The position numbers and the translations under genes were made by a program. DNA of 63,187 nt, counting the filler, from Kipferlia bialata (taxonomy: Eukaryota), in the NCBI GenBank assembly GCA_003568945.1. It is 6 parts of 6 records of this genome, joined end to end, with 100 filler letters (N's around TTAATTAATTAA, not from the genome) between each part and the next. Parts side by side here need not be neighbours in the genome. Positions count along the whole stretch, not along the records: positions 26,207 to 39,186 come from BDIP01001001.1; 5 more parts are not named here. The stretch is one strand, 5' to 3'. The first letter of the stretch is position 1. Every line of letters begins with the position of its first letter. The notes beneath the pieces were generated by a model. It was not told the origin of the DNA and did not search any database. It saw nothing but the letters and a program-made list of their open reading frames with translations. Positions 2,650 to 57,951 of this stretch are shown piece after piece.

Positions 2650-2695
<46 letters not shown>

Positions 2696-5203: not shown

Positions 5204-5234
<31 letters not shown>

Positions 5235-8715: not shown

Positions 8716-9038
8716 TGAGATTGTGTGTGTGGTTAGTATACGTGTGTCTGAATTGGGTAGTTTCTGCGAGTAAATTGTGCGGCAAGGACTTCTCTTTGTG
8801 TACTATGGGACTTGATAGTACAGAGTTGAGTTGTGAGTCGATATCCAACTAGATCTATATGGCGATAGAGCCAGCGAATAATTCAAGAGAATCGGAAAAC
8901 CGGAGAGCTCACTTTGCCTCTCTCTCTCTCTTTCCTCTCATTCCAAGAAGATACAAGACACAAGTGGTACCTCTGAAGTGCTACCTTGACCTACCTTGAC
9001 CTGCGTTGACCTGCGTTGACTCAGTAAGACCTACACAC

Positions 9039-26235: not shown

Positions 26236-29200
26236 GACACCCTCTATGACATGCACATGGCCCTTGGCGTGTCAGTGCTCAGGAGCATGCAGGTCACGCA
26301 GGTATCATTATATATATGTATATTAATACACAAGGTGTAAGGTGTGATACATACATATCACGCATGTATGATATATATATTGCAATATATATACCCTTAT
26401 AGATACCCATGCACATGTGAGTGTCAGTGCTCAGGAGCATGCAGGTCAGTATGATCCATAAACGTGGTGTATGTCGTGTTCTAACTCATTTTGTGTATAT
26501 CCTATAGTTCCTTTTGAGTTTCTGGTATACTTACCCCTCCAGGTCACTGTCGTTGTGTGTCAGCTCTGGCGGTCCCTGCCCCAGCTGAGGTGTCACTACC
26601 TCAGGTATGCATGGGTCAATATATACCTCAATTCTATATTGAATACTGACTCAATTATGGTACGTTGCATGCTTCACTGATGCTGATACTGATACTGATA
26701 CTACCTCAGGTATGCAAGGGTCAATATACATCTGCTCTGATGTGGATTTTCTTCAATGTCTATACTGATACCAATATGATGATTTGCGTATTCTCTCTGT
26801 TTAGATACCCCTCTCATATTTATTTCGTTATATATATATATATATATATATATGATTGTATATACCCCTCTCATTGTCAGGTCTGTCAGGCACCGCAGGC
26901 AGGAGCCAGTGGATATGCACTGTGCCCACTCCATCTTTGGATACGGGGCACTGGAGGGAGAAGTAGTGAGAGAGGCATCTGTCAGGTATGGAGTATAGTG
27001 AATATAGTACAGAGTGTATAGTAATGGTGATATGCACATGTGGCATACAATCTCTTACATCTAGGTCCCAGTGCAATGCCCAGTTCTCTGAAGCTACACA
27101 GACGCATATATATACATGTATAGCTAGAGTAATATACATGCTATTTCATTAACAACCAGATCCCAGTGCAATGCCCAGTTCTCTGATGCACTCAAGCTGG
27201 ACATGGCAGGGTTGAAGGCTATTCCAAGGTGTGTACATATACATATATATAGTTATGTATATAAGTATGTGTGTATATGCACTCAAGCTGGACATTGCTG
27301 GGCTCAAGGCTATTCCAAGGTAAGAATCAGTATCAGTATTCCTATCTTTATTGCATCTCTATTTCTGGACATCGTAGAAACCTAGAAAATATAGAAGTCT
27401 AACTTCCTAGGAACGGTGCCTTTGAGTGTCTGACTGTGGCAGGCAGTGCAGCGGGGAGGGAGGGCGCAATGCAGGTATACACACTATATCTATATTTATA
27501 TATCTGTCTATATATAGTGTGTATATATAGAATATCATATCATATATATAAAGAGAGAGGGGGAGAGAGAGAGATTATCTGTATCTGTGTTGTCAGTGCA
27601 GCTGGCAGGGAATGCGCAATGCAGGTATTCATACATACACAACCATACGTATATGTATAGCGTAGTATTTCATTGTGCAGTATGATATATGAAGCTGGGA
27701 CACAAGCTATTTCTCCAAGTGTCTCCATCCCTCCCCCCCCCTCCATTTCCCCTTTTAGAAAGGTATGTGTCATTCTATGTCGTCTCACCCTTAGGAGCAG
27801 CTCCTGTCCCTGCGTCCCTCCAGTGGATACACACACAGTGTGGCAGTGGACGTGTCATTCAGACACACACAGGTATAGAGTGTGTATACATATCCATTCA
27901 TATAGGTTCTATACTGAAGTGTCCATCCTAACCCCAGACCACCCTGGGTGCCGAGGAGATCCTCTGCCAGATACTGGAGCACCCCATACTCAGGTACGCA
28001 ATAACATATTTACATGTCAATCTTTACATGTCAATTGTTGTGAATTGAGTACCCCGCTTGCTTGGCTTTCACTCTGTCTCACAGTATAGTTGCATAAGTT
28101 CATTGGTATATCATTTAGTATATCAACGATTATTGCTTAGATTGCTTTCACTGCTCTCACCCCTTCAGAATGGCAGTCCGCATGAGATACATGAACGACG
28201 CCTCGAGGCGCTTTGCAATCAAGGTATCTGTCTACCAATGTACAATTGTAATGAAATGCACTAGGCAACATTTGTGTTTCCTATTGCCACTATTCTAATG
28301 GTATTGAGTTATATTTGGTTATTGGATTAGTAGCAATGCCCTAACCCGTTAGGATAGCCATCTCCCCACCTACGAGTATGCCTATGACTATGGCCCCCTG
28401 GACCAGCTGCTGAGGACGATGAAGCACATCGAGTATGCAGTCATGTACATACCCAAGCAGGTATACTAATATACAGTGTATATGTAGTGTATAGTATGTA
28501 TATACATACATAGAGAGAGAGAGACCATGAAACACATCGAGTATGCAGTCATGTACATACCCAAGCAGGTAGTGGTATAGATAATGATTATTTTACACTT
28601 ACACATGTGTAAATGTATATTCCTTCGGATTGTGCTTCCCAGCAGCATTTCCTTGTGCATATCGAAATGGATGTCTACTTCTATACCATGTGCGAATGCG
28701 CCCTTGCTCACTCTAGATCGTTGCCCCCAGCGGTATCTCCCTCGTCCATGTCATCAGACTGGGCTGCAGATGGACAGAGGGGGAGAGAGACCTCTCAGAG
28801 GAGCAGGAGAGACTGGCTGAGAGCACCGCCCTTGCTAACCCACACTACAGTGCTAGTATGTCCCCCACTACCACTTCTAGAGAGACCATGGGTGATACTA
28901 GAGAGAGGTCCTACATGATATCCAACGAGACCTCCCACCCCATACCATCCCCCACCAGAGGGGGTAGGGCAATGACTAGAGACCTGTCTGCATCGATGCT
29001 CAGCACAGCACCTGCCCCATCTCAGGTGTGTATATGTATGTGTGTATATATAAATATATATGATACATTGTGTTTATTATACATTATATATATAGTATGT
29101 CTGCATCGATGCTAAGTGCAGCACCGGCACCTGCACAGGTATGTATATATATATATATATATGTATATATAGTATATATAGTATATACGTATATGTCTTC

Positions 29201-32200
29201 ATCGATGCTAAGTGCAGCACCTCATGTATGAATATATGTGTGTATATATGGTGCAGTGTGGTGATATTTGTGATGCATACTTCTCACTCTAGGCCGGCAT
29301 GGAGAGAGAGAGAGAGATGTCCGTTGGTGCCGAACAGCGTGGTGTCTCTGTGGTGCGTCGGAGAGTGCCCCCCTCCCACTCTAGGTAATCTCAAATACTA
29401 CTCACAATACTATATAATTGTTTATATTCTTATGTAATTATGAAATCTTAGAATATACTCCCACTCTAGGACACCCCTTGCCCCGTACACACCCCTACCC
29501 ACACCTGAATCCTTAAATACTATATAAAATACTATAGTATTATATGTAATCTAATGAACCACTCCCACTCTAGGACACCCCTTGCCCAGTACACACCCCT
29601 GCCCACACCTGACCTGGCTCAGATCAGTGGAGGGGCTGAGACACAAGTATGTATTATTTATATCTATCTATATATATTTATATATATTATATCAGTTCTT
29701 TGGAGGGGCTGATACAGGTAGGTATCCCTTTTCCGTTGGATAATTATTGCATGTATTCCACACTTTTGTATATGCATATATCTTTGTGTAGAAGGTTAGT
29801 TACTGACCCCCCAGGGCGATGCCCAGTACGGTGACCTATCCACCAGTGGCCTAGGTGGTAAGGATAGGGAGAGAGAGAGAGGAACATCCCCACATGCAGG
29901 GGGGTCCCCTCTCTCATCCTCCAGCCGTCTCGACCGTTCAGACCGTCTGGACCGTTCTGGCCTCTCCCCTACCCTGGCTGGCTCAGACTCCTCTATATCA
30001 GGGTCTCTGAGACTGGAGACACTACTCAAGGGACTGGGACTCTCTATCACGGCAACAAGGTGCGGTATCGCAGTATATACGACGTAGAAAACATTTGTAT
30101 CGAGTATGCTTATGATTCTCTTCTCTAATTTTTAGGCTCCAGACCCCCCCTCGCTCTGTGTCTCTGTCGGTGCTGCACAGGCAGAGGGTGTCACTCAGTC
30201 TGCAGGTGATTATTGTTATATATATGTGAATTATATATACACATGTATGAATATACAAACTATGGATATATACATGTGTGTGTCTCTGTCTGTCCTTCAT
30301 AGACAGAGGGTGTCCCTGAGCTTACAGGTGTGGACTCATACGTATTGTTATACATTTTTGTCTATGTGCGCATATGAGTACTATATACTATCCTTAAGGC
30401 AGAGGTTTTCCTTGAGCGTCCAGATAGTATAATAATAACCAATCAGATGTATTCGGGTATTATTTGGAGACATTTATCAGTAATATAGTAAAGTTCCCTT
30501 ACCTCTAGGACCAGCTCCTAGCCCTTGTGTGTCTCAGTCCTATATACACATCATATTATATATATATATATATATGTATGTGTGTGGGTGGGTGTATTTC
30601 CATGTCTTACGCCTAGGATCAGTTACTGGCCCGTGCCCTTGTGTGTCTCAGTCCTGTAGCAGTCATACTACACATTAATACACATGTAACAGTATATATA
30701 TATCGGTGTCCTTAACAACAGGATCAGCTCCTGGCCCGTGCCCTCCTCTGTCTGAGGCACAGCCAGGCACAGACCGGACAGGGGTACAGAGACATGTTCA
30801 ATGCATTCTATGCTAGGTATGACTCTATGTATATAATTATCTTTTAGGTGTATGACATACGGGTGTATGTATATACAGTATGTAGTCGAGTACATACAAA
30901 GCAGGCTACTATATTTCTGTAACGACCTTTACGAGTACATACATATTTGTATATATGTCTAACCCCTAGGCACCGCGATTGCCAGATGATCCCAAGAGTA
31001 TATGAATATGTATATAGATAGTATATGTATATATATATATATAAATATAGTATATGTATATATAGTATGTTCTATTCATGTATATTGTGGATATGTCTGA
31101 CTGCTAGGCACCGTGATGGCCAGGTGATCCCAAGTGGTGTGTCACCCATACCCACCCTGGCACTCAGGTATGAATGTGTATATATATATATATACGCATA
31201 TGGGTAATTCATTTTAATATTCATTAGAGAAATCAATCACTGATTGTCTCACCCCCAGGTCCTCCTAGACCCAGCCCAGACATAACTTTGGATATTTCCC
31301 TCCACTATTCCTCTATGTTGGTGTATGTCTCTACAGCATGTGCATCTCACCCCCAGGTCCTCCTATCCCAGCCCAGACAGACTCGCCCACCTGCAGAGGG
31401 AGAAGGTACATGATATGGCAATGTATTCGTATTTGAATGTATTGTTTACATTTCGCATCTCACAATCAGATCTTTGAGACCCCTATCTTAACTCTTACAT
31501 GCATATATAATTATATATACTCACATTTAGATCTTTGATACCCTGGACGTCAACCTCGACTACGAGCACCCCTACGCCGAGACGTCCAGCCCCACCCCCG
31601 CACCCCTGTCCCTCACTCCATTCCTCTCAATGCTGTGTGACAAGTATGCACTGTCACCCACATCCACACTCGCACAGTCACCGGCCGGGGTGTCACCCTC
31701 CAAGGTATGTATGTATGTGTATATGTATTTAGTTATACAAATTTGTATATATATATATACCCAATAATGTATAGTTGTCTCTTTGTCCTAACCCCCAGGC
31801 TGACTGTGGTATTGAGGTACACAGTGTATCATAGATACATGTATAGTGTAATATAGCTATATGTTATCATACTATGCATGCTATGCCTGACCCCAGGCTG
31901 ACTGTGGAATTGAGGTCCTGACTCGCCCTGCATCAGGGGCATTCCACCAGGTACAGATCCTGATAGATATATACTAATGTGCAAAGAAATACTATTGTAT
32001 ATTAATATATATAGAGAGAGAGTGATATATATATTTCTATACATTCCTCAGGGACATTCCACCAGCTGGGGTCATTATGCATCCCTCATATATGACCATA
32101 TCTATCCTATGCTATATATGTGTCCCAAATGTAGTATATATATATATTGAGAGACAGGATTCATATCCTCTAACCCCAGGTCAAGGCTGGTGTTGCCACC

Positions 32201-33824
32201 CTCCTGTCTACCCTGTACACACACCCAGAGGCACTTGTCTTTGTAGGTATGGTACACTTAATGATTCCTGTCTATCCCAATCCCAATAGCAATAGCAAGA
32301 CCTGGGTATGCTTACACACTGTATCATTGTATAAGTATTGCACTACGAGGCTGTGACATACAATTTATACCATTACTCATGCGTAAAATTCATGATTATT
32401 ATGTAAATGCAATATTGTTACATGATGTCTCACCCCAGGCCAGGGCCTAGACAGTGACTCTGCAATATTTACCAATATACATACTCTTGTTATATGACTG
32501 CAGTACATATATGTATATCTTGTTGTATACCCACTCCCCCCAGGCCAGGGCCTAGACTCCGAGTCATCCTCCCGCCCCCTCCTAGCCTCCATCCTTGTAC
32601 ATACCTTGCTGGCCCCTGCACCCTCTCTGTCCCTGTGCCAGTCATCGGCACTGCTCAACCAGAGCCACATACAGACACAGGTATATAGATATATATTTAT
32701 ATAAATTGTATGTTACCGCAAGATAGCTTATGTTGTTAAATATTTATGATAATTGTGGATAACATAGTGAAACCGCACTGATATCCAGGCCCAGTCCCCC
32801 TCACTGCCCCCAGTTGCCTTCTCCGCCACCCCCCTATCTCGCGTTGTGGCACTGACCATCTACATGCACTTTAAGGCAACGCAGGAGAGAGTGGCAGAGA
32901 GAGCACAGAGAGAGAGAGAGGACATCGTGGGCAGGTCCTGGCTAGACTGTCTACTAGGTGCATTGACAGAGAGTGACACATGTCTGGAGTGGGGCAGGGA
33001 AGTACTATCCACCTCTGTGTCCACCTTGGTTGAGTGGAGCAGACTGGGGTACGACCTACACGTTGAGCTCAACTCTCCACACGGTGTGGAGGCTGCCTGT
33101 GACAGGCTGGGTGACCTGTTGGCAGTGTTCACGGCATGCATATCAGAGTGTGTGACTAGCTGTCCACCCATGATCAGAGACACGCTCAGGTATATATATA
33201 TATATATATATGAATGAGTACACCATATATTCTGTATACTAAATATATGCTATATATATGTATTGTTGGTATCAAGGCCACGCTGTCCACCCATGATCAG
33301 AGACACGCTCAGGTATATGTATAGGCTTACACATTCTCTCTCTCTCTGTGTTACACTTTCTATCTCTATATTTATCCATTCATATATATATCGCTTCATA
33401 TCTGATTCTTAGGCACATGCGCACCTGGTACACAATCTCTCTCTCTCTCTCTCTTACTGACTCTCTTACAGTCAGACACATGCGCACCTGTGCCGGTGCC
33501 AACAATACCCAGGACCTCTCCTTTGCCAGACTGGTGGTGCATGCCCTGCTCAAGAAGTGTCTGAACCACCCTGTTGGGAGTGGTCTTGTATCCTACGAGA
33601 CAGGTATGCATATAAATATAAGTAGACAGATGTATATATACAATACTTACACTAGGACATGATGCACATGCCAGTGTCTTGTACTCCAACCTCTCCCTCC
33701 TTGGTGATATACTATGTATACTATATACACACACACATATATATATATATATAGTACTTACAATAGGCCATGACAGCCACGACAGTGTTCTGTACTCCAA
33801 CCTGTCTCTCCTTGGTGATATACC

Positions 33825-33866
<42 letters not shown>

Positions 33867-34349
33867 GTACTTACACTAGGCCACGACAGTGTTCTGTACT
33901 CCAACCTCTCTCTCCTTGCTGATGTACTATAGACACTATATATATATAATACGTACACTTACTTACCCTAGGTCATGACAGCCATGCCAACGTGCTGTAC
34001 TCCAACCTGTCTCTCCTGGCTGATGTCATTGAGACATGTGCATACCCAGACGGCAGTGTCATGTCACCCCTGCAGATGGGAGGGAGAGTGGCCAGTTGGG
34101 TCTACAAGATGAGGTAATGCACACTATACATCTATTACATGTATTCGTCTACTATTCATCATCTTACCGCTAGGGAGACCCTCACCTCTGTCCGTGCCAA
34201 CTCCCTATCAGTGGTTGCACAGCAGCTGGCAGACGGAGGCTCCCTCCTGACACCCCTGCCCATACCATACCCTCTGCCACAGAGTGTGGAGGGAGGGGTG
34301 GATAGAGAGCTACTCTCAGTGGCCCCCGTGGCAGGTATAGAGTACTATA

Positions 34350-34386
<37 letters not shown>

Positions 34387-34542
34387 GGAGGAGTGGACAG
34401 GGAGTTACTCTCTGTCGCACCAGTGGCAGGTATTATTCTTGCATAATTAGTTAGTTCACTCATGTATATTTATACATTTGGGTATATAACTCACCCCAAG
34501 CACTGTGATCCCGTGTTCCTCTGACATTGTTGACTGTCCCAT

Positions 34543-34581
<39 letters not shown>

Positions 34582-36934
34582 ACACCCTAGGTACTGTCAT
34601 CCCCTGCTCGTCTGACATTGTTGACTGTCTGGCCTCTCTCATACACGTCCAGATGCCCAGAATCACAAGGGGGTACCAGGTACACATACGAATACTACAT
34701 GTATTGTATACATCTTCATATACATATTCATATATGTGTTTGTGTGTCGTAGTGAGTATATATCTAACCCCCCAGTCCCTACACATTGATGATGGCCTGC
34801 AGTGCCCATCTCTCTCTCTCTATCTCTCTCTCTATATATATACATTCCTATTCATTAGTATACACCTTACCCCCAGTCCCTGCACATGGATGGTGGTCTG
34901 CAGTGCCTGGCCAGTGACAGCCATGTCTACAAGGAGACACAGGTGTGTTATACTATATTATATTATGGTATATATATGACAGACTAGAAATATGTATATA
35001 TGAATAGTGCTTATGTAGATGGAGTAACAGTCATGTCTACAAGCACACACAGGTATAGATTATTATATAATAGTATACATTTGAATGATATGTATGAAAT
35101 ATGTAATCTATTCCCACCATGAAGTCATACTGAGTGTGTTCCAATGTGTATTATTGTATATAAAGACGTAAGCTCACACATCAGACCTGCCTGGTCCATT
35201 GTCTGCCAGCTGTCTACAACTATACTATTATATACGTATATGTAAATGTTTCATATTCCTATTCCTAATATAGCTTCTCTCACCCCTCAGACCTCCCTGG
35301 TGCATGGTCTGCCAGCTGCTATACTAAATATAGTACTCTACACATTGGCGTATATATTGAGTGTACATATACACTATAGGCTTCCTGTCTATCTCACCCC
35401 TCAGACCTCGCTGGTGCATGGTCTGCCAGCTGTCAAGGCAGCGCTCAAGGGGGTGACCCCATTCACAAGGTACTTGTATATGTGTTAGACGGCGAGTGGA
35501 ATGTGCCAAGAATATTTTAGTACTATTTATACCTTCTCTAGTCTCTAAAGTCTAACCCTTAGATCCAAGGACAATGTGCTCTTCACAAGGTTCAGTGATG
35601 TGTATATATATAACTCATATATTCGTAGAAAGATATGTGTATGATATACGTTATCCTCTTAAGATTCACCCCCAGGCCCAGGGACAACGTGCTCTTCACA
35701 GCGTCTGTGTACAGGGACAGTGCAGGTGTGTGGATTAGAGTCAATACAAGGCATTCATTGCATGTATTAGTAGTGTTATACTCATTCCCACCTCTGCCTT
35801 TGCCACTGTGCTGAGGCATAAGTACTGATATACCTATATGTGTATATATGTAACCATGCAGTATCCCCACCTCTCACTGTGACAGAGACTAAATTGAATT
35901 ATTTGTTATTGCAATTATCTGTTGTGTTATAGATAGTCCATGGATACTTATATTTCCAAATTGATAGCTGTTCCCACCTGACGCTGTGCAGAGGCACAGG
36001 GTGGATGCATATGTATATTTATATACTCAAGTACTCATGCGTAAAGTCAATATCTCTAACCATGCAGGTGTTCCTACTAGTGCCTTTGACGCTGTCCAGA
36101 GACACAGGGTGGATGCTGACCCAGTCACAGCCCATGTCAACGAGGCAATACTGGACAGGTATGTGTATGTATAAATGTATGTGTGTATCCTATCATTGTA
36201 TATGTCTCATATCAGCTATGCCCTTGTGCAGAGTGGTGTCAGGATGGACAGTGTATATATATACATATATATATATTTATATATATATATAATACTGTAT
36301 ATACTCATCCCAGCTATGCCCTTGTGCAGAGTGGTGTCAGGATGGACAGGGACAGGGTGGACAGACACGTGTTCCAGAGGTATGGTGTATCATATATATA
36401 TATAGTTATACATAACACTTCCATAGTAAATCTGGATAGTATAATGTATATATATAATCATTGGTATGGACAGGGACAGGGTGGACAGGCATGTGAGTAT
36501 GGGAGTCATTTTAGAGAGAAACATTCTGGAGTATCATCTTGAAAGAAGTATGATATCTTGAGATAACAGAAATCAAAGTTTCTAATAATTGGTGTATCTT
36601 CTCACCCCAGGGCTGGTGAGTTCAGCCAGGGATACAGTGACCCCGTTGCTCGCACAAGGTATGGATGGTGGTGTCTCTCCAGCATTGTCTTGTGTGTGTA
36701 TATATATATACATAGGGATATCTCACATAGGGAGACTGTGGCCCTTTCCCATGCTCTCGCTCTCCATCTTTCTTAGATACGTTTCTCTTGTATATGAATC
36801 TATATCTATCTGACCCCAGGGAGGTTGTGACCCTTCTCCAGACCGAGTCCTCCAACATTGTGTACAGGACATACATCAGTGCACTGTACACAGAGCTGGA
36901 GGGATGTTTGGCAACAGCAATCCAGGTATAGTTC

Positions 36935-36968
<34 letters not shown>

Positions 36969-37656
36969 CGCATATATTAAATACACATGTATATATATAC
37001 ATCAGATCAGTGCTATTCAGGTTTGTATATAAATGGGTATATACCATTGCTCTATTTGATTATAGGTGTAAGTCAGTGTATTAGTGGTTCTTATGTATTA
37101 GTATACGTATAAGTATGTGTTACTATAAACATAGTCTTACCCCCAGGCCACCAACAGCACCACCGAGCAGTACCATATATATACTAATTATACATAATTG
37201 TACTTGTATTAATTATTATATAAATGTAAAATGTGTGTATTACACGCATGATTCTCACCTTAGGCCACCAACAGGCATAAGGATGTGTTATTATGTACAT
37301 GTTCTTACACTCAGAGTACCAACAGCACCAACGAGCAGTACCAGCGCTACCTAGCCCCATCCGGCACAGAGAGCACTGGGAGAGGGAGAGTGGGGGATAG
37401 TACCCCTAGGTCCCCCCTGCCTGCGCCCTTCTCCCCCCAGGCCCTGCCCATAGTGCCCATAGTGCCCATAGTGCCCATAGTGCCTATAGTACCCATAGTG
37501 CCTATAGTACCCATGGTATCATCCCCACCTGTGTCTGCACACCCTGCTGTGACACCACCCCTGTCCAGACCCTCAAAGCTGAGGTATATACATGTATACA
37601 TATATATATATGCTTACTTATATACTCAAAGCTCAGGTATTGTATATATTGCTATG

Positions 37657-37688
<32 letters not shown>

Positions 37689-38372
37689 TTATAGTATTCA
37701 TGTATATATACACCCTGCCGTGACACCACCACTGTCCAGACCCTCAAAGCTAAGGTGTATAGTATATCTACTAAACAAATATATATATGGAGTGATAAGC
37801 ATTGTGTTCCCTATTAATTGGCTCTCATACCCAGGTTTGTGACCGATGAGAGTGGGTTTGTGGTGAGTAAGGGTCCAAGGGAGGCTGGGGCAGTGACCCC
37901 ACCCACCCCAGACGGGTACTACACTGAGGTATGGATATATGTATACGGCATAGACATGTATTGTTAATATATATATTCATGTATATCACACCAACCCCAG
38001 GACCAGCCCGACCTGCCCCTCCAGTCAGCTGCCCTTGCCAACCCACCCACACCCACTGTGTCTGGTACATCTAGTACCTACAGTGCCTATAACACCACTG
38101 GTACCACTGGTATGGGTAGGAGTAGACTGGCAGTGTCGTGGAGCAGTGCTAAGCAGCCAGAGCCAGTGAGGGAGAGGCAGCCCGAGAGGAGTGGGCGCCC
38201 TGTTGTGTCCTGGAGCAAGGCACCCTCCCAGGCTGAGCTAGAGAGAGAGAGAGAGCAGAGAGAGCAGAGGGAGGCTGCCGCTAGAGCCCCCTCCCACACA
38301 CCCTCCCCTGTCGATGGAGGGACGCAGTTCTACTCACTCCTGCAGTCATTCAGGTCCAGACAGGGACAATAG
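26236..38372 (+). CDS. Large multi-exon protein with a divergent RasGAP-like domain, possible RasGAP_C-like segment and Pro/Ser-rich tail; 5'-partial
   Basis: More than 30 phase-compatible exons ending ...LLQSFRSRQGQ* (TAG 38370-38372). The segment GREVLSTSVSTLV...VELNS...SCPPMIRDTLRHMRTCAG...LVVHALLKKCLNHPVGSGLV...SNLSLLADVIETCA follows the order of RasGAP helices; ...NEQYQRYL recalls RasGAP_C. The gene is well supported; the domain call is an inference. Confidence 0.6.
33656..34030 (+). repeat. 5' half-exon echo array in RasGAP-like gene (GHDSHANVLYSNLSLLAD)
   Basis: Echoes start at 33656, 33767 and 33880; live exon starts at 33972. Confidence 0.9.
37446..37513 (+). repeat. 9-bp coding tandem repeat (GCCCATAGT-like) encoding (PIV)x7
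   Basis: Direct reading: LPIVPIVPIVPIVPIVPIVPIVPMV. Confidence 0.9.
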
Positions 38373-41131: not shown

Positions 41132-44100
41132 TCAGTACGTGATCTTGTTTTGCAGCCCCTGGAACACGTCGTATACGTTGGTCAGGAACCTGTTGGCAGA
41201 CTGGGCTATCTTGAGGTGGATGAACTGGACTGCGGCGGCATTGCCTATATCGAGGCCCATACGCTTCTGCACTCTGCCTATGGGTAAGGGTATAAGATGA
41301 TGAGGGGGGAGGGTATGCAACATGAGTATGGCAATACCAGTGGGATATGATGGAACACCCCCACCTATGCTGCCTGGTTTGAAGCAGGGCATGCCGTTAC
41401 TCAGTACAGCCTGGATGGCTGACAGGAAGGGACCCGGACATCTGGGGGTGAGGGCGGGGTGGTTCGGGGATGGGTGGTATGGTGGTACAGTGTACCTACG
41501 TAGGACTAGGAATGCCCGCACGGTCAGTACCCTGAACTCGCTAAAGCCAGGGGAGTCTGGGGAGGTGCCTGGGGTCAGAGATAGAGGACAGGACTCTGAC
41601 CTCTGGACACTATTCCTATATATCCATACATACAATGCTATGCGCAACCCTTGGCATACATATAATGTGTCATACCCAGTATATCCACCATCTCCTGGGT
41701 CATCTTGAAGGGTGCCACCTCTATAGACAGGTCACCCCCTGGCGTCAAAGCATATATCAAGGTATCAACACACCAACATGGCAACACATCACACGAAGGT
41801 CACTGGTGCCAAAACACTACATTGCAACAGAACAACATACTCAATCCTGAAGCACAATACACCGTTGGTACTCTGCATACATATTTGTATGGGCAAGCAG
41901 AATACGGCTACCCACCTGGGGCTATGTCAAATGCAAACCCAAAGTCGATGTGCAGCATTCGGCCCAGGTCGCTGTACATGATGTTGCCATTATGCCTGGG
42001 TCAGTATAATCATAGAGATAAGCAGGGAAATGTGTATACATACATTAACACCCCACACACCTGTCCTTTAGCTGGAGCACCCAGCTAGCTATGCTACTAG
42101 GGACCAGACTCTCGAGGAACAAGGTGCGGTGCTTGGCAAACTCATCGGTACCCGGCATGCCATACTGCTAAAGAGTCAGAGGTATAGAGGTACACTGGGG
42201 ATATCCCACTAATGGGACAAGGCGACGAGATGAATATTGTATATATATACACACACTTATACCTGGCAGAAGTAGTCGAACAGGCTTCCATCGACCCTGT
42301 GGCCAATCTCATCCCTGGACCTGGCATCGCCCATGACCTAGCGGTGAGGGCATACACATATGTTCGACGGCATATACATATATGCAAAGCGAAACCATAA
42401 ATTGTTAATTACAAAAGCAGCAAAAGGCAGCAAAAGGTAGTAATGAAAACAGAAAGAAAGAATGATACACTGAAAGTGAAGAGAGTGGAACAATACAACT
42501 ATACAGGCTAAACCGTCAAGCCATGTCCACCTAACGATGCATGTATATACATACATACACACACCTCGATCACACCGTCCTCCAGCCTGACAGGGAATAC
42601 ACCGTATGCCCTGGGGTCAGGCACGCACACCCAACTATGTCAATGAACTAGAGTGATTCATACTGAGACTGCCAACCAGGAATGGATGTATATAGTGTGA
42701 TTAAGTGGATATCGGCATGTCCCTGAGGTAGAGACCCATCGGTGACCACAGACGGGACAGGACACCAAAGAGCTGCACAACCAGTTGGTCCTAAAGGGTA
42801 AGGTGTTGATAGAACCAACTGATATACGTGTATATTGCAATTTATATTCTATTACCATAGTCGATCGTCATACAATGATACAGCCTCTGACCTGCTTGAC
42901 GTTGTCTCCGGCCTTGAATATGAGGGCAGACACTGCAGACTCTGTGTCCCCATCCTGACCCTCGTCCATGGCGCAGTGACAGTCGAAGGAGACCATGACT
43001 GGACACCTAGACATATCAGTGTTGGAAATGGATATAAGAGATGTGTATACAGTATATGCATGATATATGCAGAGACCCGGTGACTGTGGTCTATACCTCT
43101 CGTGTGACTTCATGACCCTGCCCTTCCCAGGCACGATGGAGCACACGGAGGCCTGGGGTGTGAAGGTACATTGGTATTGAAAAGATGATCATATATGTAA
43201 TATGTCTCTGATGAAGCAGTGTGTGACTAGAGTGCGTGTAATACCACATCGGAACCACCCCGCCCCACCTCTGGTTTGGTTGGAGGAGGCACACACTGCC
43301 GTCTACCACTCCCACTGCCACTGCCATTAACAGTGGCACAGTCTGTGTGCCCTCTCTCTCCATCCACCCCTCTCAGACTGGCACTGCCGGCTGTGCTGAT
43401 GCGGTCAAGGGCGGCATTAAGCTCAGAGACCCTGTGGTGAGATCACCGACACAATAGCACAACACAGGGTCGTGCCCCTAACACTACATATCACCAACGG
43501 CACATGCCCCCCACCTATTCTCCGGGGGCACCGGGACCAGTGAGGAGGACAGGGCCAGGATGGAGTTGTACACAGTCTGCTGAGAGCTGGGATCAGAGGG
43601 TATATAGACAGGGAATCAGTAGGAGCACGTAAGTAACGGGTATATGACGATATCGGTATGTATATATGTCAACCATCCCCACCGTATGACCCCTCTGCTG
43701 GCCTGACTCATATGGGACAGGACCCTTGCATACAGCCACAGACAGACACACCCCAGGGAGGTATGGGGGCGCCCTAGTGACCTGGGGTGAGGGCTTGTTA
43801 CAACAGAAACATGTCAGTTGCTACACAACCAATAGGTAGTGTCAGGCAAACAAGAGAGAGAGAGAAATACTGGCCAGGACCATATTCTGATTGTACTATA
43901 TGGCTTAGTGGCTGGAGGACAACACCACCCGCCACATTTACTCTATATACATGTTTATACCTCAGGAGCGTCTGTTCCATCTCACGTGCCCGTTTTTGAG
44001 TGCATGTCAACAGGGAGTCCATGATGGAGATATGAAGACCGGTGGACACTGGGTGAGGGAGAAGCCAGATAATACACAATGCGTTATGGATACGCGATTA

Positions 44101-45486
44101 ATGCACTCACCTAGGAACTGTCTGACTGCTGGGATAAGCCTGTTCTTGAGAGGCTGGGCGATGCTGGTCTCGACCTCTGATGCTAGGGCCCTGTACAGTT
44201 AGAGAGACAAGGGTGGGTACTTGGAATACTACGATTATATACACATGCCAAGGCGTACCAGAGCAGCATGCGTCCAAATGTCTCTGGCGCCTTGGTCGAC
44301 TGTTCACACAGATACTCCCCGAGAACCATGCCCCTAAGAGATAGAGACTCAGAGTCTGCCAGGGAGAGGCACTGCGTGAGGGCCTGGCCCTGCGGCAGGG
44401 CTGCCACCAGCTGGGGTATGCAGAAGCATAGGCCATGGGGGGAGACAGTCAGGGAGAGAGACCCCACCGCGTATCGTGTATACTGCGGGTGCTGTAGCAG
44501 TGCCAGAGCAGCTGCAGGGGCACACGGGGGGAGTAAGCAGGACGGTACAGGGGCAACACCCCTCTGCAACACTGTTGGGTCTGGGGTGGGTAGGGGCCCA
44601 GCACCCACAACAGGGGAGACACGGGTAGGAGGAGGGTGAAGGGATCCACTCACTGTAGGAGTGACTGTGTGTGGTACATCTCTCTCTCTGTCTCCAGCAT
44701 GTACATGCCGATTGTCGTGAGAAGACCTAGTAGGCACAGCCTCATACTGTGTAACAGAGGATAGCGCCACTCCCATAAGGGGACAGCGGAAGCGGAACCT
44801 GGGGTGGGGGATCATGATACATCAGTAACAGCACAGTCTCACAGCGTACCTAGCCACTAGTCTGTCTGCTACTCTAAGGGGAAGACCCCTGAGGGTGGTG
44901 GCCCACTGGGAGGCGCTGACCCTAGATAGGTATGCACTCGACAGTACAGTGACGGAGGGAGAGGCACCAAGTCCCTCTGCTGAGGCCAGCAGGTCACGAA
45001 CTGGGTGTGAGATAGAGTCAGGTAGCTGAGAACTAGTGAGTCTGTTACTTCATGGCAGAATGCTACAACCATCTCACCTGGCCCACAGAAAGACTCTCCA
45101 AGGAGTGATGAGGAGTGGACATCCAGAGGGGGCTGGGTCTTGACCTGAGGGTCAGACACAAGAGATGCAACCAACAACCCGGAGCAATCCAGGGTTACTG
45201 TATACCACAACGCAACATTATGTATGAACACCCCACGCACCTTTCTCTTTCTCTCCTGTGCCATCCCCTCGAGAGATGTCCTGGAGGCCCTGGGGACCAC
45301 TGAGGGCTCAGGTTCCACGAGGGTCTGGAGTCGCTGCCACTCGGTCACCAGTTCCATGTCGTCTAGGGCACACAGACAGGCGGCATCCCTGAGCGCAGAC
45401 AAGCTATGGGTTGGCGTCAGGCCTGGGGTCAGTAGATACATATATGACAGATAGTTCAACCACACAGGTCAGCAGAGGCAAGATAG

Positions 45487-45520
<34 letters not shown>

Positions 45521-48500
45521 CGGCATACCCACCTGTTCCTGAGACAGGGTGCTCCCCAATGAGGGGCACGGATAGGTCGAAGAGGGACGGGGGGCATATG
45601 CAGGAGGTGCCCTCCATACCAGATGTGGACACCCTCTCTGCCCCCCTGTCCAGGCCCTCTGGTACTTGTACTGACGCTGATGCTGACGCTGTCTCCCCCC
45701 TGTCCATATCGTCGGGGTGCCTGACTCCATGGCGGAACAGGAGACGCACCACATCGCTGGAGTCATATACAACTATTATCACGAACACATATGAATACTC
45801 TGGTACTACCACAGACTAGCATCTTACCTCAGGGCCTTTCTGTCAGTGTCCAACCCTGCATTGACCTGCAGCAAGGGGAGGAGTGAGTCAGTCTCACAAG
45901 AGACGTGCAACATAAGCTGTCGTTAGATGGAGAGAATGCCAACTATTCCACATAACCCTTGTATATATATATGAATGTTACTTGCAGAATGCACCTTGTA
46001 GGCTGCCTCTCTGACTAGTGGACCCCCCATACTCCCCCCCTGCAGTAGCACTGCACATGTGGCATGGGACACCGACGGCAGACACGCCCAGGTGTCTGTA
46101 GTGATGGCCTGGGGTAAGGGGGTAAGGACCCATATCATACACCCATCATAACCATCAGAAAGGTATGTATGGTCTCAATTGACATCTGTATACTACCCTG
46201 ATACCTTGAGTACAGACTGGGCCAGGGTTAGAAGGGTATCGGTGAACACGTCCCTTAGAGCGCCAAGGGGCCCATTCTCCTGAGAGTAAGATGCGTATAT
46301 GGTAAATCCACCTGCTGTTGAACTACTCCCTGACACACCTCTATCAATGCCGACAGTACAGCTATGTAGCACTCAAACACCAAACACTCTGCAGAGACCA
46401 GTGCTCGCTGTGCTGCATCAGCTGCCTGGGCCTGCTGAATCTCATTGATGCGGTCAGGACCGTTGGTTGCCTGCATTAAGTATATACTCGGTAATATGTA
46501 GGATTATACAATACTACTTTTTACTATACTCTACCAACAAGAGGACACACAAAATTGACACACTAACCTCTAGGGAGACTGCAAATCCAGGGTCCACCGC
46601 GGTATAACGAACGAAGGGGTGCCTCCTATGTCCATGGGTGCACATGTCACCTATGCGATTGGCCAGTTCCTTGAGCACACTGGTATTCCTATCCAACAGT
46701 GATGTCCCAGTGTTTGCCGTGTCTGCATGCCCCGTCAGCAGATGCACACACACAGTATCCACATAGAGGGGTATGGCGTCGTGAGTGCGTACTTGTGTGG
46801 CCAGGTCTAGTACCCTGGGGGTGTCCCCTGTTGATACCACTCCACACAGGGCATGGGCCAGAGAGGCCCTGGTAAGGGAGAGGTGGGGGGGCAGCCCTTC
46901 CCCTCCGATTGATACTGCCCTGACCACCAGCACCTGCCCCAGGAGGGTACGGGTGAGGGGGTCAGACACCCTCTCTATGGCAGAGGCCCATGCCTCATCG
47001 TGCCCTGTGCATATAGGCGTCGAGGGTGTTGTGTCAGAGTGCAGCGGCTCTGACAGGAGGGCACTCAGATAGCTAGCACGCAGCCACCGAGACCCCTCAG
47101 AGCCTGGGTGACCTACTACTTAGCGGCAGTGACAATTCTTGGGGAGATAGTGTATGAGGTGACCGACATACACCCACCTTGGTTGCCCATGCCCAGCTGT
47201 GCCTGTTGTTCATAGAGAGAGAGTACTGCAGACACTGCCGAGGAAGAGGACCTTGATGCAACCATAGATGGAGTGGAAGCAACACCTAGGGCCACACTGC
47301 AGTGTTAGTGTGTGGGTATCATAGTAAGACCAGTGTGTTAGTGTCAGAGAAGGAAAAGTGCTGTTCAACGGACAGGTGTCCAACGATTGTCACATCATAC
47401 CGTGTAATATGTGGATGCCAAAGACCGGTCCCCAGTCTTAGACGGCTCCCAGCAAGGCACGACGTCAGTATGTCAAGGCGAGCAGACCCCAGCCGGCACT
47501 CTGACATGCCTGCAGTGTGAGAGTGCACCAGAAGATACATCACTAAACACACATCCTTACATTAGCTTACCTTCCAAGATTCCTGATATGTACTCCCAAG
47601 TACGGTCTAATCCAGAGCCAGCAGAGTTTCCACGCCTGAAATGGGTAACAACACAACGAGCAACTGCATAGAGATGTCTGGGTACCTCAGCATTCCAATA
47701 ATGCGAGTACGTCTGGACAGCAGACATCCCTTGAGTAGCGATGTCATATAGACTGTGCTGGGAAGATGCGTCACCTGCGATGAGACATATATTTATACAA
47801 ACACACAAACCATCTCATATATATGTGTAGAACCTGGTCATCCAAAGTGACACCCCCTATTCACATATATACCTGATCCCTGATCAGACCATAGTCGATG
47901 TCTCCCTGGGAAAGAGGGAGAGAGAGGGCCAGTGGAGACACATAGCCACATAGCACCAGAGGGGTCACATGGGTTGCCTTGTCACTATAAAGCGTAGCAG
48001 CTGTGCCTCTCACCGCCTCCAGCACCGCAGACACCACCATCCAGGGAGGGGCACTGGGACCGGACGGCACAGTGTGGGACCGTATACCTGGGTGTACAGC
48101 ACGCATACACGCCAGCAGAGTGGCGTGACTAGCTTGGGGGGAGAGGAAGGTACTGGCCTGTGTGATAGACACGCCAGGTACCTGGCATAAGCACACCTCA
48201 GATAGATTATATATATATAGATAGATGTATATATATATATGATATATGGGTCAGGACATACCACATACTAGCACTGTCTATCCAGATGTACAATGCACTA
48301 AGGTATACAACTCACCTGCGGATATACTGTGTATGTGCACCCGGGAGGCACCAACAGGGCTGGACACGCATCGGAGAGGGCCACCAGTCCACTGGTAGGG
48401 ATGAGGGCACCCTCCTCCCCAGACATGTGCAGACCCAGCATGATGGCCCTATGGACAACAGACGCCAGGTGGGGGAGAGACACCCCACAGTAGGTCCATG

Positions 48501-51500
48501 TTCCCCCAGACATCGCGTAAGAAGGGCCCATTACAGTCCCCTCCCTATATAGGTGGAGGATCCCTCGCAGACAGGCACTAAAGGGGACAAGGAGCAAGTC
48601 ATAGGGTGCGATGAGGTCAAAGGAGAACTCGCCAGAAGTGTCTCCACGTGAGGTACCAATGGCCACCGCACTATCATGTGCACTGGCTAGAGCCCCAGAG
48701 AGCCTGTGGTACAGACGATGCAACTTGGTAGTCTGATGGGCCTCGGTAGCAGCTGGTGTCAGAGGGGGTCGAGGTATAAGGCAAATAGCTGCGTTCGGTA
48801 CCTTCTGCTATAGTCGACAGACACCCACAGGCCGCGGTAACAGCTGCAAGCTTCCCCTTTCCCCCCTGTACCTGTTGTCCATCTCTCCAGATAGAGAGCG
48901 GGTACAACGCACACCCCACCAGCCTCCCTGCAAATCAGTACACAGGTCAGAATTCCTAGGTTTGCGAGGTGAGGGACTACTCTCATACCTATGATCTCGT
49001 TGAATGCCATCGAGTTGGACTCCTTATCCAGCTCCCTCTGACCAGTGTGTGTCAGTCCAGAGAGGACTCTTGAGGCAGATACGGGAAGGTGGGAGGGTCT
49101 TTCTGTCCCAATCGTGGTGGAGACATGGGGTGCATCGAGAGAGGCAGAGGGTAGGAGGGCCATCTCAGCCGCTGCAGAGAGCAGAACCCGCAGAGGCAGA
49201 GTGGGCGGCAGGGAGGCCATATACGACCGAGTACGACGGTGGGTCCTGAGGGCCCTGGACACACTCTTCTGCCCCTGTATCTCCTCGTCCTGCTGTGTCT
49301 CGATAGCCAACACGGCGGAGGAATTGGCAGCCTGTAGTAAAGAGGGAGTGCAAAAGACAATTACACCACTGTAACCACATGGGATGCCCCTACCTCGATT
49401 GCTGCCGAGGTCTGGGGTCCATAGCTCTGGGGCATCATCTGGAGCACAGCGTCAGTCACCTGGGTAAGGCGGGTAAAGAACCATAAGGCTATTACCTACC
49501 ACACCATTACCACGTTCTTCAACCAAGGGAATCAATCTGGTTTTCACGAGAACAACATCCAAGATACATACTCCTTGAAAAATGGTGCTTCCCATACCTG
49601 ATCGGTGATGGACGGCACCTGGGCTGCTCGAGCAATACTTACGACGCCCTGCGGTATTAGGTGAAAGAATCTGATATTAATACATGAACCAACATAGTAT
49701 AGTCTCTGGATACCTCAAGTACATATGTGCCAGTCCCAAGCCTGTCTCTGCTCAACAACACGTCCAGCTTCGAGCTGTACTTGGGTCGCAATGCAGGATC
49801 GGCAGTCCCTGCTAGATTCACTCTGCCCCTCTGCTGAGAGAGAGAGTGGGCAACCAGAGCAGCCACTCGTCTGATGTGAATGGATGGAGGAAGTGTCCTC
49901 TGTATCTATCTCTCTGATGTAGATATTGCACTATACATATAGATACAGGTACGGGGCTGAGACTAACAACACCCACCTGAACGAAGTGGGCTCTGTTATG
50001 ACGGAAGCCAGTGAGCCAATCAGTAGACTGACGGCACCTGGGTGAGTCCAGTTCAACAATAGGTGATCTACTAATCAGTACATAAGACGCACTCACCCTT
50101 GTGAGCTGCGCAGTCCCTTGCATACAGCCCAGGAGACCCCTCACCCACCCCCTCTCCCGTGGCCACATCAGCCATGGTGACCAGCACAGGACACAGGTGC
50201 CAGGGCTCAGCAGGCAGCCTGTCTCTCTCTCTCTCCCTGTCACACCCTGTCTCTCTCGCTACCCCTGTCCGACACCAAGCAGACTCCACTTGGACCTGGA
50301 CCCACGACAGAAAGTGCCTCCTCGAGGATGATGGGAGAGGGTGTCCTTGGGCAGAGCCGAGGGACGTATAGCTGTCCAACTGAGAGTCCGTGACAGGTCC
50401 AGCAGCCGCTGCGTACTGATATTAGTATCAAAGAAAACTTGGAAAACTGAGCTGAGCACCAGAAAGAGTGTACCTTTTTGAGGAGTGTCCCCCGCCATTG
50501 TACCAGTTCGGCCACCACATCTGGCTCTGAAGGGTGAGAGTGTATCGTGCGCAAGTATCATGACAACATAATGATAGAATCAGTAAGCAATCGTGACACC
50601 CCGACACATACCCATGTACTGTGTCTTCAAGAGACCCATGAGCACTGCCACCAGTCCCAGCACGTGTCTGGCCCAGAGAGGGGGGAGGTCCAGAAGGGGC
50701 GGGAGGCCACTCAGAGGGTTGGTAGTATGTGCCTCTCCCTCAGAATCCCCCCTGCTATGACTACCTATGGACACTCCAACATCCCTAATGTCGACATAGC
50801 TCGCAGACCTCCCATGGTCGAAGCTTCCAGCTCTCTTTCCACCTCCGTCCACCTTTCTCCTTCCAGCCTCTCCCCCTACACTCATCCTTCCTGCACTTCT
50901 CGCCTCCCCTCCCTTTCCAACAGGTACCGTACCGGAGTCAGACCGATCTAGACGGTGGGGATGGAGAGACAACGATACTACGGAGTGTCTCCGGACAAGA
51001 GGAGACACCCCAGGTACCGCAAAGCGAGGCAGAGTGAGTGGGAATTGCTGCCCAGAACTGAGGGAGAGAGAGTTGGAGAGGGATCCCTCGAAGTTGTACA
51101 CATCTCGCCCCCGCCCCCGCCCCCGCCCCCGCCTCGTCCTAGCCCCCCCTCCCTCAAGTGAAGCTGCATGGGCCTTGAATGCCGCAGGGGCCACATACCC
51201 TATCAGTACCGCAACATCATTCATCAGCTCGGCCTCCTCTAGGTGTCTGGTCTCGATGGTATCTTGCTGGGAGACACCCTGTCTGTCGTCACCCCCAGAG
51301 TGATACAGGAGCATGAGACGAGCTAGTATCAGAGGGGTGTGCTCCAGATACTCTTTTGCCTGGTTGACCCACCTGCCAGTATCATGACGTGTCTGATACT
51401 CAATGGTCTCTGCTGCGACACACATGCCCTGGGTTGAGTGGCACCACGGCAGTTACAGTGAAGAATAGTACATGTCACATGTTCATCCAACATGTCAGGA

Positions 51501-51923
51501 ACAGGACGTCGGTATTTGAATATGTGTGGGGAGAATATATATATCGTAAGGACGATATGTATTTGTAGCAGGCCCAATACCTGCAACTCTCAGCAATGAC
51601 TGCCGTCCAACACCCCAATCGGGTACTGGGACGATCCTCTTCCTTGCTCTGCCGTTGAGAACCAGACCCCGCTGTCTGGCGTCTGGTATGTAGAGGTAAA
51701 GAGAAGTGGTCCTGGTGGGCACAGGCCTCTCTGGAAGCACTCTCGGCCAGTCTCTGCCTCTCCCCCTTGCCCCTCCTCCTCTCGTGTGAGGACACGAGGC
51801 TCAGCAGGGAGTGGGTCTTCTTGGGACGGGGAGACTGACTCTGATCCACAACACAGGACTGGGCCCTACGGACATGACGGGAAGCAGCATACACCACTGA
51901 CTCAAACTGGCCGGGGGGGAGAC
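41132..51923 (-). CDS. PI4KA: Phosphatidylinositol 4-kinase alpha (type III alpha, Stt4-like); 5' end uncertain
   Basis: C-terminal exons: [90 protein letters not shown] and terminal [15 protein letters not shown], typical of PI4KA/Stt4. A long run of minus-strand exons upstream fits a ~2000+ aa protein, but not every junction was checked. Confidence 0.88.
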
Positions 51924-55533: not shown

Positions 55534-57951
55534 CTACAGACTGACCCTCCTAGCCATAATGAGTCCACTCTGCAGGCCTATCAGCACATAAGTGTCCCTG
55601 GCCAGCCCTGCCACTCTCCTCCCTGCTCTATCATCCACACAGACCATGCACCTCACCCCATGCCTCTCACTCACACGCTCAAGAGCAGCCTCCCCACGCT
55701 TCGGCTTGTCCTTGCCTTCCCTAAGAGGTCAGTATCAGTATCGGATGAGAGGGAGAGAGGATGCTAGACAAACAAATGCATATATATACAATACACATTC
55801 GCCCTCACCTAGCCGATGTCAGCATGTACCCAGCTGTGGGGTATAGGTCCAGGGTGACCCCCACCTCCTGCCCTGTGGTGTCTAGGTTGGACCTCACAGC
55901 CAGGGAACGCACACCCCGGGAGAGCTGAGGGGGTTAGGAGACAAATAGCGGTAAAAGTGGAAGAGAATGCATATTTGGTGATAGTTGCAGAGGCAGAGAG
56001 AGTGCGTAGATGTAGCGAATGTAACACCACAACCAGACCCACCTTGATGGGGTTCCTCTGTCTGTCTGAGCTGGCCGACCACTTGTCCTCCTCGTCAGAG
56101 TATGCCATGACATACACACACCCCTGGGTGCCACCGATACAGGTGAGGTTCCCACCCTGGGGGGAGAGGGGGGGAGGTGGGTACACACTATGATGCAAAA
56201 ACGTAATTATGGATGAGACAGCAATCACAGGACACACACACGCACCCTCCCGTCTGGCACTGAGCACATTGAGGCCACGCCCTGTCCCGTCCCTGTCAGC
56301 CACTCTGTCATCTGGGCATTTCTGAAGCCAGAGGCGCCTCCCTCCATAGCTACATCGTCCTCCTCAGCCTCGGGCTCAGAGGCAACGGGAGGGGGAGGGG
56401 GGAGGGCGTTGTCCTCGGGCACACCCTCTAAGGCAATACTAGCACGGTCCATACCCACAGGCACCACGGGTACAGGGGCATCTGGCATGCACTGCCTGAA
56501 CTCCTCACCCCCTGCCAGGGTGGAGGCCATGACAGACCCGGCGTCCATGCCTAGGGTCAAGGGGGGGGGGGGCAGACACAATAGACTAGTATACACACAT
56601 ACACACCCACCTACTATGAAGTGGTCCCCCACCACCAGTGCCTGGGTGGGCCTCTGCCCTATGCTGCTGAACCCTAGCACCTGCGGGTGGTCCACCCTGC
56701 CCACCATGATGTTGGTCACAAAGCCTATCCTAGGCACAGAGCAGGGGGTGGGCGTGTCTGGGTGGGTGTCTGGCGCCAAGAGGGAGAGAGAGGATATGGG
56801 CCCGGCGCTCATAGAGTCGGCATAGCAAGGGAGGGGGAAGGGGAGGGGGGCAGGGGGGGAGGGGCCTGCCACTCTCTCCAGCATCTCTGACACATACGAG
56901 TAGGAGAGGGGGTACACCATGAGGTACCCATGCAGGGTACCGATACCCACCCACACACATGGGTCGGATGGGTCCACCTCAGTGGCCTCACCCCCGTCCC
57001 CTCCCATGGCCACATCCCCTGTGCCCTGCTGAGGGTACTCCCCAGCAGACCCAGACTCACTATCCTCAATGTCTAGTACCTTCTCCTCCTCATGTCTGTG
57101 CCTGCGTTCCTGCTTAGCAGCCACACCTACTGGGAATGCCCCCTCCATAGTAAGAGCAGTCACCCTATCACTGTCGGGTACGGGGTGCAGGGCTATGCCA
57201 CCCTCTCTGTCGAGGGGCTCTCCATCTCCCTCCCACCTCGGCTCCAGTGAGAGCAGGCACCCCTGCCCCTGGTCTGCCACTGTCACTAGCATGTCCTGGG
57301 TAGATAGGGGGGTGGGGGCAGAGGGGGGGAGGCCGGCGGAGGGGGCGGAGGGGGCGTGGGAGGCGGTGTCTGGGATGGCCCAAACCCTGGTGTCACCGGA
57401 GGCAAAGGAGCATGCTACAACAGTGCACGCCAGGCCTGGGGGTAGAGAATATAACAGGGAGAGGAGGTGTATGTATAGGTAGTAGGTGCATGGACGTACT
57501 GGGGACGTATACACTCTGCCCCCCGTTGGGTATGGCAGGTCCGTATACATGGGGCCTGTCAGCTTGGAGGGTGAGGTCACCCTTGGACAGACACATGGAC
57601 AGGCCCTGGGTCAGAGAGGAATGTGAGAGTGGGAGAGAGAGAGAGAGGTTGCACCTGTACGGAGCAAGGGGTCACGACAGGGGGGGCCACGGGGGGAGGG
57701 GGTACAAAGGGCAAGGCGAGAGAGGCAGAGGGAGAACCAGAGAAGTGGAGCACAGACTGGGGTCGGTAAGGGAGAGAGAGAGAGAGTAACTAGTGGTTTC
57801 ATACATCAACAGGTGTTCTGTGTACACCCACCTTGTCCTCTCTCTTCCTACCCCCAGGCTGTCCGGGCCTCACTACGCAGAGAGAGCCGGAGGGGCGGCC
57901 TGTGTACACACAGCTGAGGGCCTGGGTTCAGATCGGATAGTGGCATTGGAT

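Follow-up and report, generated by a model that had tools for sequence, protein, structure and literature searches.

Genes of the window

The window, i.e. the whole stretch of DNA analysed here (63,187 nt, filler included), joins six parts of six records of the Kipferlia bialata assembly GCA_003568945.1 and contains three curated genes whose introns carry echoes, partial copies of an exon that reach its splice site. The exons of the gene models are referred to as live. The gene hosting the echo under study (26236-38372, + strand, record BDIP01001001.1) is 5'-partial, comprises 36 exons and 1412 codons, and carries 23 of the 92 echoes surveyed below. A double ABC-transporter gene (P0003, KIPB_004621; 13288-25416, - strand) has 37 exons and 40 echoes with a pN/pS of 0.13, and a gene for a charged low-complexity protein (259-8716, + strand) has 21 exons and 29 echoes with a pN/pS of 0.17. 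Exons from two of the six contigs were 100% identical to the K. bialata proteins P0002 and P0003, and 36 of the 37 exons of the hand-built ABC gene model occur verbatim in P0003, which supports the way in which live exons were called. The sole non-matching exon lies at 14019-14018 (- strand), where an intron is likely of the GC-AG type; P0003 is without the full Walker-A-bearing peptide of this exon. The same gene consists of two ABC-transporter units placed in tandem in one open frame, with partly different intron positions.

The host gene found no clear family: a Pfam search with 12 exons gave only a sub-threshold match to DUF1158, a homolog search with its largest exon found none, and its Atlas matches, loosely ARM/HEAT-like, were all below 0.9. 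An initial assignment as a RasGAP got no support. Three further genes (41177-51906, - strand; 52417-55175, + strand; 55652-57921, - strand), one of which encodes P0002, have median introns of 79-90 nt, against 206 nt in the echo-rich genes, and no echo was detected in their 62 predicted introns; one of them is large and, by its motifs, presumably PI-kinase-like. A gene at 59037-59681 (- strand), which we take from its motifs to be nucleotide-cyclase-like, has three echoes in eight introns. Acceptor-plus-exon starts are also repeated near 9.4-9.6 kb (9418-9640, + strand), outside the three curated genes.

The live exon and the intron behind it

The exon at 34174-34334 (+ strand, 161 nt) follows the previous live exon (33972-34113, + strand) across a 60-nt GT..AG intron. 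That previous exon has three 5' echoes of its own (33658-33708, 33769-33819 and 33880-33935, + strand). The echoed part of the live exon is its final 45 nt (34290-34334), copied at 34385-34429 (+ strand): the 14 codons GGVDRELLSVAPVA are encoded both at 34292-34333 and at 34387-34428, each copy then reading G|GT, and the homology reaches 2 nt further upstream, to 34290 in the live exon and 34385 in the echo. The two sets of codons differ at eight of 42 nt, seven times at third positions and once as CTA/TTA. An earlier, sequence-only reading had called all eight substitutions synonymous, and the codon alignment confirmed this. The probability of such an outcome by chance is 7e-5 to 1.8e-4 under random substitution (the range reflecting transition bias), and 0.002 if the live copy accepted synonymous changes only while the echo decayed neutrally. 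The phases reported by that reading are also correct: in the open 36-exon model the live exon runs from phase 2 to 1, and the echo, counted from 34387 (43 nt), from phase 0 to 1. The GT behind the echo, at 34430, scores 6.1 as a donor, against 9.1 for the live donor.

The intron (34335-34590) opens with a head of 50 nt (34335-34384, + strand) that begins with the live donor GT, closes in a 28-nt (TA)n tract and contains no branch point or YAG. Behind the 3' echo lies an intron-like stretch of 70 nt (34430-34499, + strand). It starts with GT and finishes with a branch-point motif and AA, the latter in place of the AG of the live acceptor, and it could not be aligned to the head of the live intron (flank score 7, background mean 9.4). 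It is followed by a second, 5' echo (34500-34538, + strand), a copy of the first 39 nt of the next exon (GTVIPCSSDIVDC) with a free end lacking a donor. All five of its differences are synonymous: four lie in whole codons, with no others there, and the fifth is GGT/GGC in the split codon. The intron tail (34539-34590, + strand) consists of a (TC)n tract, a branch-point motif and the live acceptor, and leads into the next live exon (34591-34679, + strand). The intron thus encloses a second version of the whole exon-exon junction, and all 13 differences of this version are synonymous (probability 4.5e-5 under copy-and-decay); the block of exon tail, 70-nt intron and next exon head (34385-34538) may represent one insertion or two.

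The sequence-only reading had overlooked the 5' partner and treated the 3' echo as a lone oddity, which it is not: in the same host gene, 30279-30327 (+ strand) is a 3' echo of 30157-30205 with 10 of 10 differences synonymous. Among the nine echoes with at least eight differences, two are synonymous throughout, whereas 0.29 would be expected from the pooled synonymous share.

Since the block is flanked by the TA tract of 28 nt on one side and by a TC tract of about 32 nt on the other, and synonymous-only differences are typical of alleles, the tandem layout might be thought an assembly artefact in which diverged haplotypes of the culture were joined through microsatellites. The block itself, however, would make no working allele, having no acceptor ahead of it, AA for AG inside it and no donor behind it, and many other echoes lack long bounding tracts while some exons have five copies. 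A separate 120-nt DNA contig of run X1 carries the middle echo of the previous exon (33769-33819), truncated, together with both of its non-exon flanks, and a share of 0.96 of the words sampled from 32700-36000 was present in X1, although this run is possibly the source sample and so not independent. We regard such an artefact as very unlikely.

Splicing of the echo

A single intron-less contig of run X2 (record 2, 4995 nt) joins 34113 to 34174 over the GT..AG intron and reads live letters only over the live exon; nothing else was recovered at the 80% likeness setting. It also joins 34334 to the exon at 34591, again with the letters of that exon and not those of the 5' echo, and includes neither echo, this joint being taken from the loose end of the contig and the alignment covering 33950-34345 only. 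The main transcript therefore skips the echo. X2 was typed as RNA by guess, and X1 and X2 derive from one sample; the contig shows the main product only, as contigs drop rare variants. The X2 word share of 0.24, against 0.27-0.28 expected from live exons alone, serves as a consistency check only. In the DNA run X1 no contig over the live exon was found within 33950-34345, with a filter that drops some records, so that a silent second allele may exist.

The AAG before the 3' echo has no branch-point motif and an acceptor score of -6.5, whereas the 5th percentile among 91 real acceptors is 0.35, and inclusion of the echo as a cassette would not keep the frame. The sequence-only reading had proposed looking for an internal phase-0 donor in the live exon that could be joined to 34387. 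Six phase-0 GTs occur there and none attains the 5th percentile of real donors (best score 1.7, against 3.1), which, with the absence of whole exons among all 92 echoes, speaks against a mutually exclusive pair. Use of the echo's GT as an alternative downstream 5' splice site would add an offset of 95 nt with a stop in the read-through, a result that depends on the exact TA count. Nor does the echo represent an intron gained by tandem duplication: its donor is skipped, and the intron uses 34335 and 34590. The view that the echo is not accounted for by simple cassette use or by mutually exclusive splicing was thus borne out by the acceptor and internal-donor scores and by the spliced contig.

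Echoes as a class

The survey covered the three curated genes (94 exons, 91 introns), which were picked since their echoes were visible. A nucleotide-only local aligner gave 156 exon-intron matches in 70 introns. Keeping matches of at least 20 nt that reach a splice site, and dropping five cross- or spurious matches (5031, 5143, 5382, 7392 and 36731), left 92 echoes; two further doubtful ones (14550 and 24780) were dropped in later counts, which refer to 90. Echoes occur in 51 of the 91 introns, against 0 of 62 in the three short-intron genes, a comparison that is descriptive only, because the former genes were chosen for visible echoes and the echo-free models are automatic.

The coding imprint extends over the whole set. 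Pooled over 92 echoes, pS is 0.275 and pN 0.042, a ratio of 0.152 (bootstrap 0.115-0.200 over 65 groups), and the differences at codon positions 1, 2 and 3 number 61, 37 and 213. In the set of 90, 4.1% of 0-fold, 13.1% of 2-fold and 25.4% of 4-fold sites differ. The wrong reading frames gave pN/pS of 1.7 and 4.1. Stricter scoring gave 0.13 and a loose mismatch penalty 0.42, the latter probably coming from over-extended alignments. The amino-acid changes were conservative in 23 of 58 cases (p 0.08), which is not clearly conservative. The framing of the echo as a lone conserved element awaiting a use is therefore not supported; it is one of about 90 similar copies, and the set looks as though it was coding-selected before copying and not at its present sites.

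With so many copies to pick from, the eight synonymous differences might simply mark the luckiest product of same-allele tandem duplication followed by neutral decay, and the echoes at 24435 and 2714 are clearly recent same-allele duplications (flank score 32/40). Same-allele copying and neutral decay, simulated with the same detector, however, gave pN/pS of 0.49-0.58; against the prediction of about 0.5 the observed value is 0.15, and 0 of 5000 bootstrap samples reached 0.5. The same process predicts 0.00 all-synonymous cases among the nine echoes with at least eight differences, where two were seen, and 1.5 among the 48 with at least three differences, where 10 were seen. Plain decay is hence extremely improbable as an account of the set.

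The echoes share a definite architecture. Offsets between live end and echo are a multiple of three in 26 of 92, and the read-through is open and in frame in five of 92. The splice site missing at the free end is present in one of 42 and 0 of 48 echoes, against a background of 4%. The copied splice sites have kept scores typical of real ones in 69 of 90 cases. Within the echoes there are five to six stop codons. Nearest offsets range from 67 to 212 nt (64 groups), introns gain about 104 nt in length per echo (r 0.89), and dinucleotide runs of at least 10 adjoin the free end in 18 of 90 echoes, against a background of 10%, a weak enrichment. Per-echo divergence is mildly overdispersed, with a log-likelihood of -161.3 for exponential times and -159.2 for one fixed rate. 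Both echo types occur together in 13 of 91 introns, against about 11 expected from independence, and a single paired insertion was accordingly rejected as a general rule. In all 13 the 3' echoes precede the 5' echoes, as expected if the order acceptor-then-donor were to create a false exon.

These data show clear selection at the protein level, and the copied splice sites mostly look functional, so that the echoes might be coding-selected in place, contributing to a minor or stage-specific product through a downstream donor, trans-splicing or non-canonical joining. At the locus, one TA unit fewer in 34356-34383 would open an in-frame read-through to the echo donor; short-read assembly could misstate the length of this tract, and contigs are blind to rare isoforms. 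The frame-blind offsets, the free ends without splice sites and the internal stops count against such a use, as does the spliced contig that joins 34334 to 34591 with live letters. Moreover, the annotated ABC protein contains no echo-specific peptide, and an extra duplicate peptide would not be expected to keep the residues of the live one. Hidden coding use is thus quite unlikely.

Where the coding constraint acted

In 17 triplets of live exon, near echo and far echo, private synonymous changes number 18, 19 and 16 and private non-synonymous changes 6, 5 and 14, respectively. Relative to neutral expectation, the private changes depart with p 4e-8 in the near echo and 9e-4 in the far echo (near versus far, p 0.06), and echoes compared with each other have a pN/pS of 0.18. 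Were the echoes snapshots of a single lineage, their private changes would be neutral; instead, the branch of the nearer echo shows as much constraint as that of the live exon. The intron sequence behind copied donors scores a mean of 10.5 against the live counterpart, compared with 9.4 at random, with 4 of 46 above the 95th percentile; flanks of copied acceptors are more alike (11 of 42), owing partly to a shared motif and two clear recent duplications. The copied GT and AG bases have changed at 7 of 180 positions (3.9%), i.e. at the 0-fold rate. Near-background donor flanks together with this low rate of change at GT and AG therefore argue for an old divergence and a recent stranding. Synonymous private changes, the lack of whole exons, frame-blind offsets and unalignable flanks likewise suggest that the ancestors of the echoes were coding for most of their history and became intronic recently. 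Judged from these comparisons, the pattern points to working gene copies that had long been separate before they were united recently, with slight neutral decay since then, more of it in the farther echo.

In 16 of 20 multi-echo groups no third-position pattern is common to two copies, and therefore more than two donors would be needed. The working copies might have been paralogs or homeologs, from a gene family or the subgenomes of an old hybrid, that served as ectopic repair templates. In favour of such donors, echoes are gene-specific and fairly uniform in divergence, and the echo at 21108-21073 (- strand) has a 20-nt perfect match in the same gene, within the second ABC unit (13360-13341), covering two silent sites at which the echo's own live exon differs. 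This match is, however, the only one of its kind among 90 echoes, within the window. Weak searches with three exons, the host gene included, found no close paralog; most multi-echo groups would require three or more distinct donors; and the lack of a second transcript at 80% likeness on the live exons, a weak point as contigs drop variants, also counts against paralogs, which we consider an unlikely source.

Proposed origin of the echoes

Many equidistant working copies of an exon that is itself single-copy would most simply come from the alleles of a very diverse population. We lean, at slightly better than even confidence, towards the echo deriving from a different working allele, part of which stayed behind when diverged alleles recombined imprecisely. 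The population would hold alleles differing at about a quarter of fourfold sites, with microsatellite-rich introns that cannot be aligned between alleles, and therefore only exons could pair. A break near an exon end would lead to invasion of a diverged allele and the copying of about 100 nt across the splice site; the new strand, unable to anneal back, would be end-joined, giving a head-to-tail duplication of two alleles. Dmc1 might perform such an invasion near the exon end, copy into non-homologous intron and, after end-joining, leave a half-exon and intron head beside those of another allele. Alternatively, a crossover out of register on an older echo could yield the same head-to-tail duplication, and existing echoes may be refreshed by out-of-register crossover with the live exon end of another allele. 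Selection would remove products with both an acceptor and a donor, so that half-exons alone persist; once stranded, they would decay neutrally (about 1-4% so far) and turn over fast. The synonymous bias would then be inherited from the time when both copies coded on different chromosomes, the echo itself being functionless.

The machinery for such events may be present. The accessible portion of PMC8516963 lists Spo11 and PolQ for K. bialata, along with four models of Dmc1 and five of Rad52. Rad51A is reported to be absent from fornicates and Ku from metamonads; the available text of PMC11514202 describes Dmc1 as able to recombine mismatched sequences. Several points count against a derivation from alleles: sex is unobserved in metamonads, as stated in the same portion of PMC8516963, and the implied synonymous diversity of 0.25 (uncorrected) exceeds the 0.20 reported for Schizophyllum commune (PMC4576712, in the part consulted). 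The patchiness of echoes between genes (51/91 against 0/62 introns) is likewise unaccounted for by this origin, and a model with exponential times fitted the divergence of the echoes slightly worse than one fixed rate did. Two metagenome scans for a second isolate or allele gave nothing related, one match of 30% proving to be bacterial DNA, and the P0002 and P0003 clusters, each with a single member, contain no protein from a second isolate. The single transcript recovered from X2 over 33950-34345 at 80% likeness, in contigs that drop variants, weakly suggests one expressed allele in the sample.

The idea that echoes are back-up templates for pop-out repair, kept by second-order selection, was rejected by argument only, because pop-outs frequent enough to expose mutations in the echoes would eliminate the echoes long before the divergence of silent sites reached 0.25. 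Some process outside all of the readings set out here is decidedly improbable. The echo is real and probably has no function of its own; it belongs to a class, apparently undescribed, that in all likelihood preserves a record of alleles. It is conceivable, at somewhat less than even confidence, that the introns archive alleles about 25% diverged at silent sites, whose recombination would routinely leave half-exon scars, so that a single genome of haploid appearance would keep several alleles of the past for each exon end.

Comparison with known systems

The class does not pass as cassette exons, mutually exclusive exons, alternative donors or introns gained by tandem duplication. Mutually exclusive tandem exon duplicates, such as those of Dscam and tropomyosin, are neighbouring copies with synonymous-biased divergence. 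Each of these duplicates is a complete exon, with two splice sites of its own and phases that match, unlike the K. bialata echoes, of which 0 of 92 qualify.

The echo works like a tandem duplication from failed repair, but not one copied from a sister template. In Caenorhabditis elegans (helq-1 and brc-1), failed SDSA followed by PolQ joining produces tandem duplications from about 100 bp upwards, as described in the consulted part of PMC8654963. Those duplications are head-to-tail, and the nearest offsets in K. bialata (67-212 nt) meet their scale of about 100 bp; the process needs strand invasion and PolQ, a gene of which is listed for K. bialata in the portion of PMC8516963 cited above. The C. 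elegans copies, made from a sister template, are identical, unlike the K. bialata copies with their pS of 0.27, pN of 0.04 and flanks near background, which furthermore are concentrated around splice junctions and belong to the regular make-up of wild-type genes.

In hyperdiverse Schizophyllum, crossovers prefer exons (PMC4209137, in the text available). The resemblance to S. commune lies in exchange confined to conserved exons between alleles about 0.2 diverged at synonymous sites, a diversity measured there and inferred from one genome in K. bialata. The difference is that clean crossovers are reported for S. commune, the string 'duplicat' having no occurrence in the available text of PMC4209137. 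Intron gain by tandem genomic duplication, in which a duplicated AGGT yields a new intron (PMC3443670, consulted in part), also involves a short tandem duplication with a splice-like site that leaves the protein unchanged; in K. bialata, by contrast, an existing intron grows, and the duplicate has diverged under coding constraint.

Codon-constrained half-exon copies in introns are apparently an undescribed class. No description of them was found in a literature search that covered largely papers outside subscription. The strings 'duplicat' and 'heterozyg' have no occurrence in the main text of the K. bialata genome paper, as far as available (PMC5874029), and the Kipferlia passages of PMC6679479 contain no mention of duplications.

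Exon copies in introns would be expected to decay regardless of codons, and the echoes of K. bialata, in large numbers, defy this expectation. According to the available text of PMC5874029, K. bialata is free-living, belongs to the fornicates and has 124,912 introns in its annotation. If the echoes do derive from alleles, diversity, recombination and sex would be readable from a single genome, with thousands of introns as replicates; they would provide direct evidence of outcrossing in a metamonad and of a synonymous diversity that equals or exceeds the eukaryotic record, and would reveal an undescribed driver of intron growth, with old echoes and the ends of live exons swapping places via out-of-register crossover. 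They would then also allow one to test naturally how strong decoy splice sites, only 100 nt away from the real ones, are passed over by a reduced spliceosome. If the copies are used instead, they would point to an unknown way of making mRNA. In practice, echoes are able to mislead gene prediction in the K. bialata genome.

Further observations

Several other features of the window concern splice sites and short repeats. At 1571-1652 and at 17652-17553 (- strand), the acceptor CAG of an echo looks more canonical than the frame-keeping live acceptor AAG. At 1845-2110, three echoes contain an exonic acceptor-like stretch and so form complete cassettes of 20-27 nt with donors, a possible route to new mini-exons. 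Within the exon part at 37447-37515 of the host gene there is a 9-nt tandem repeat (IVP repeats), and the downstream length of the X2 contig fits an end at about this place. Finally, at 29385-29573 the last 12-15 nt of the intron, and of the acceptor of an upstream echo, are a repeat of the sequence that ends the preceding exon, much as in intron gain by tandem duplication.
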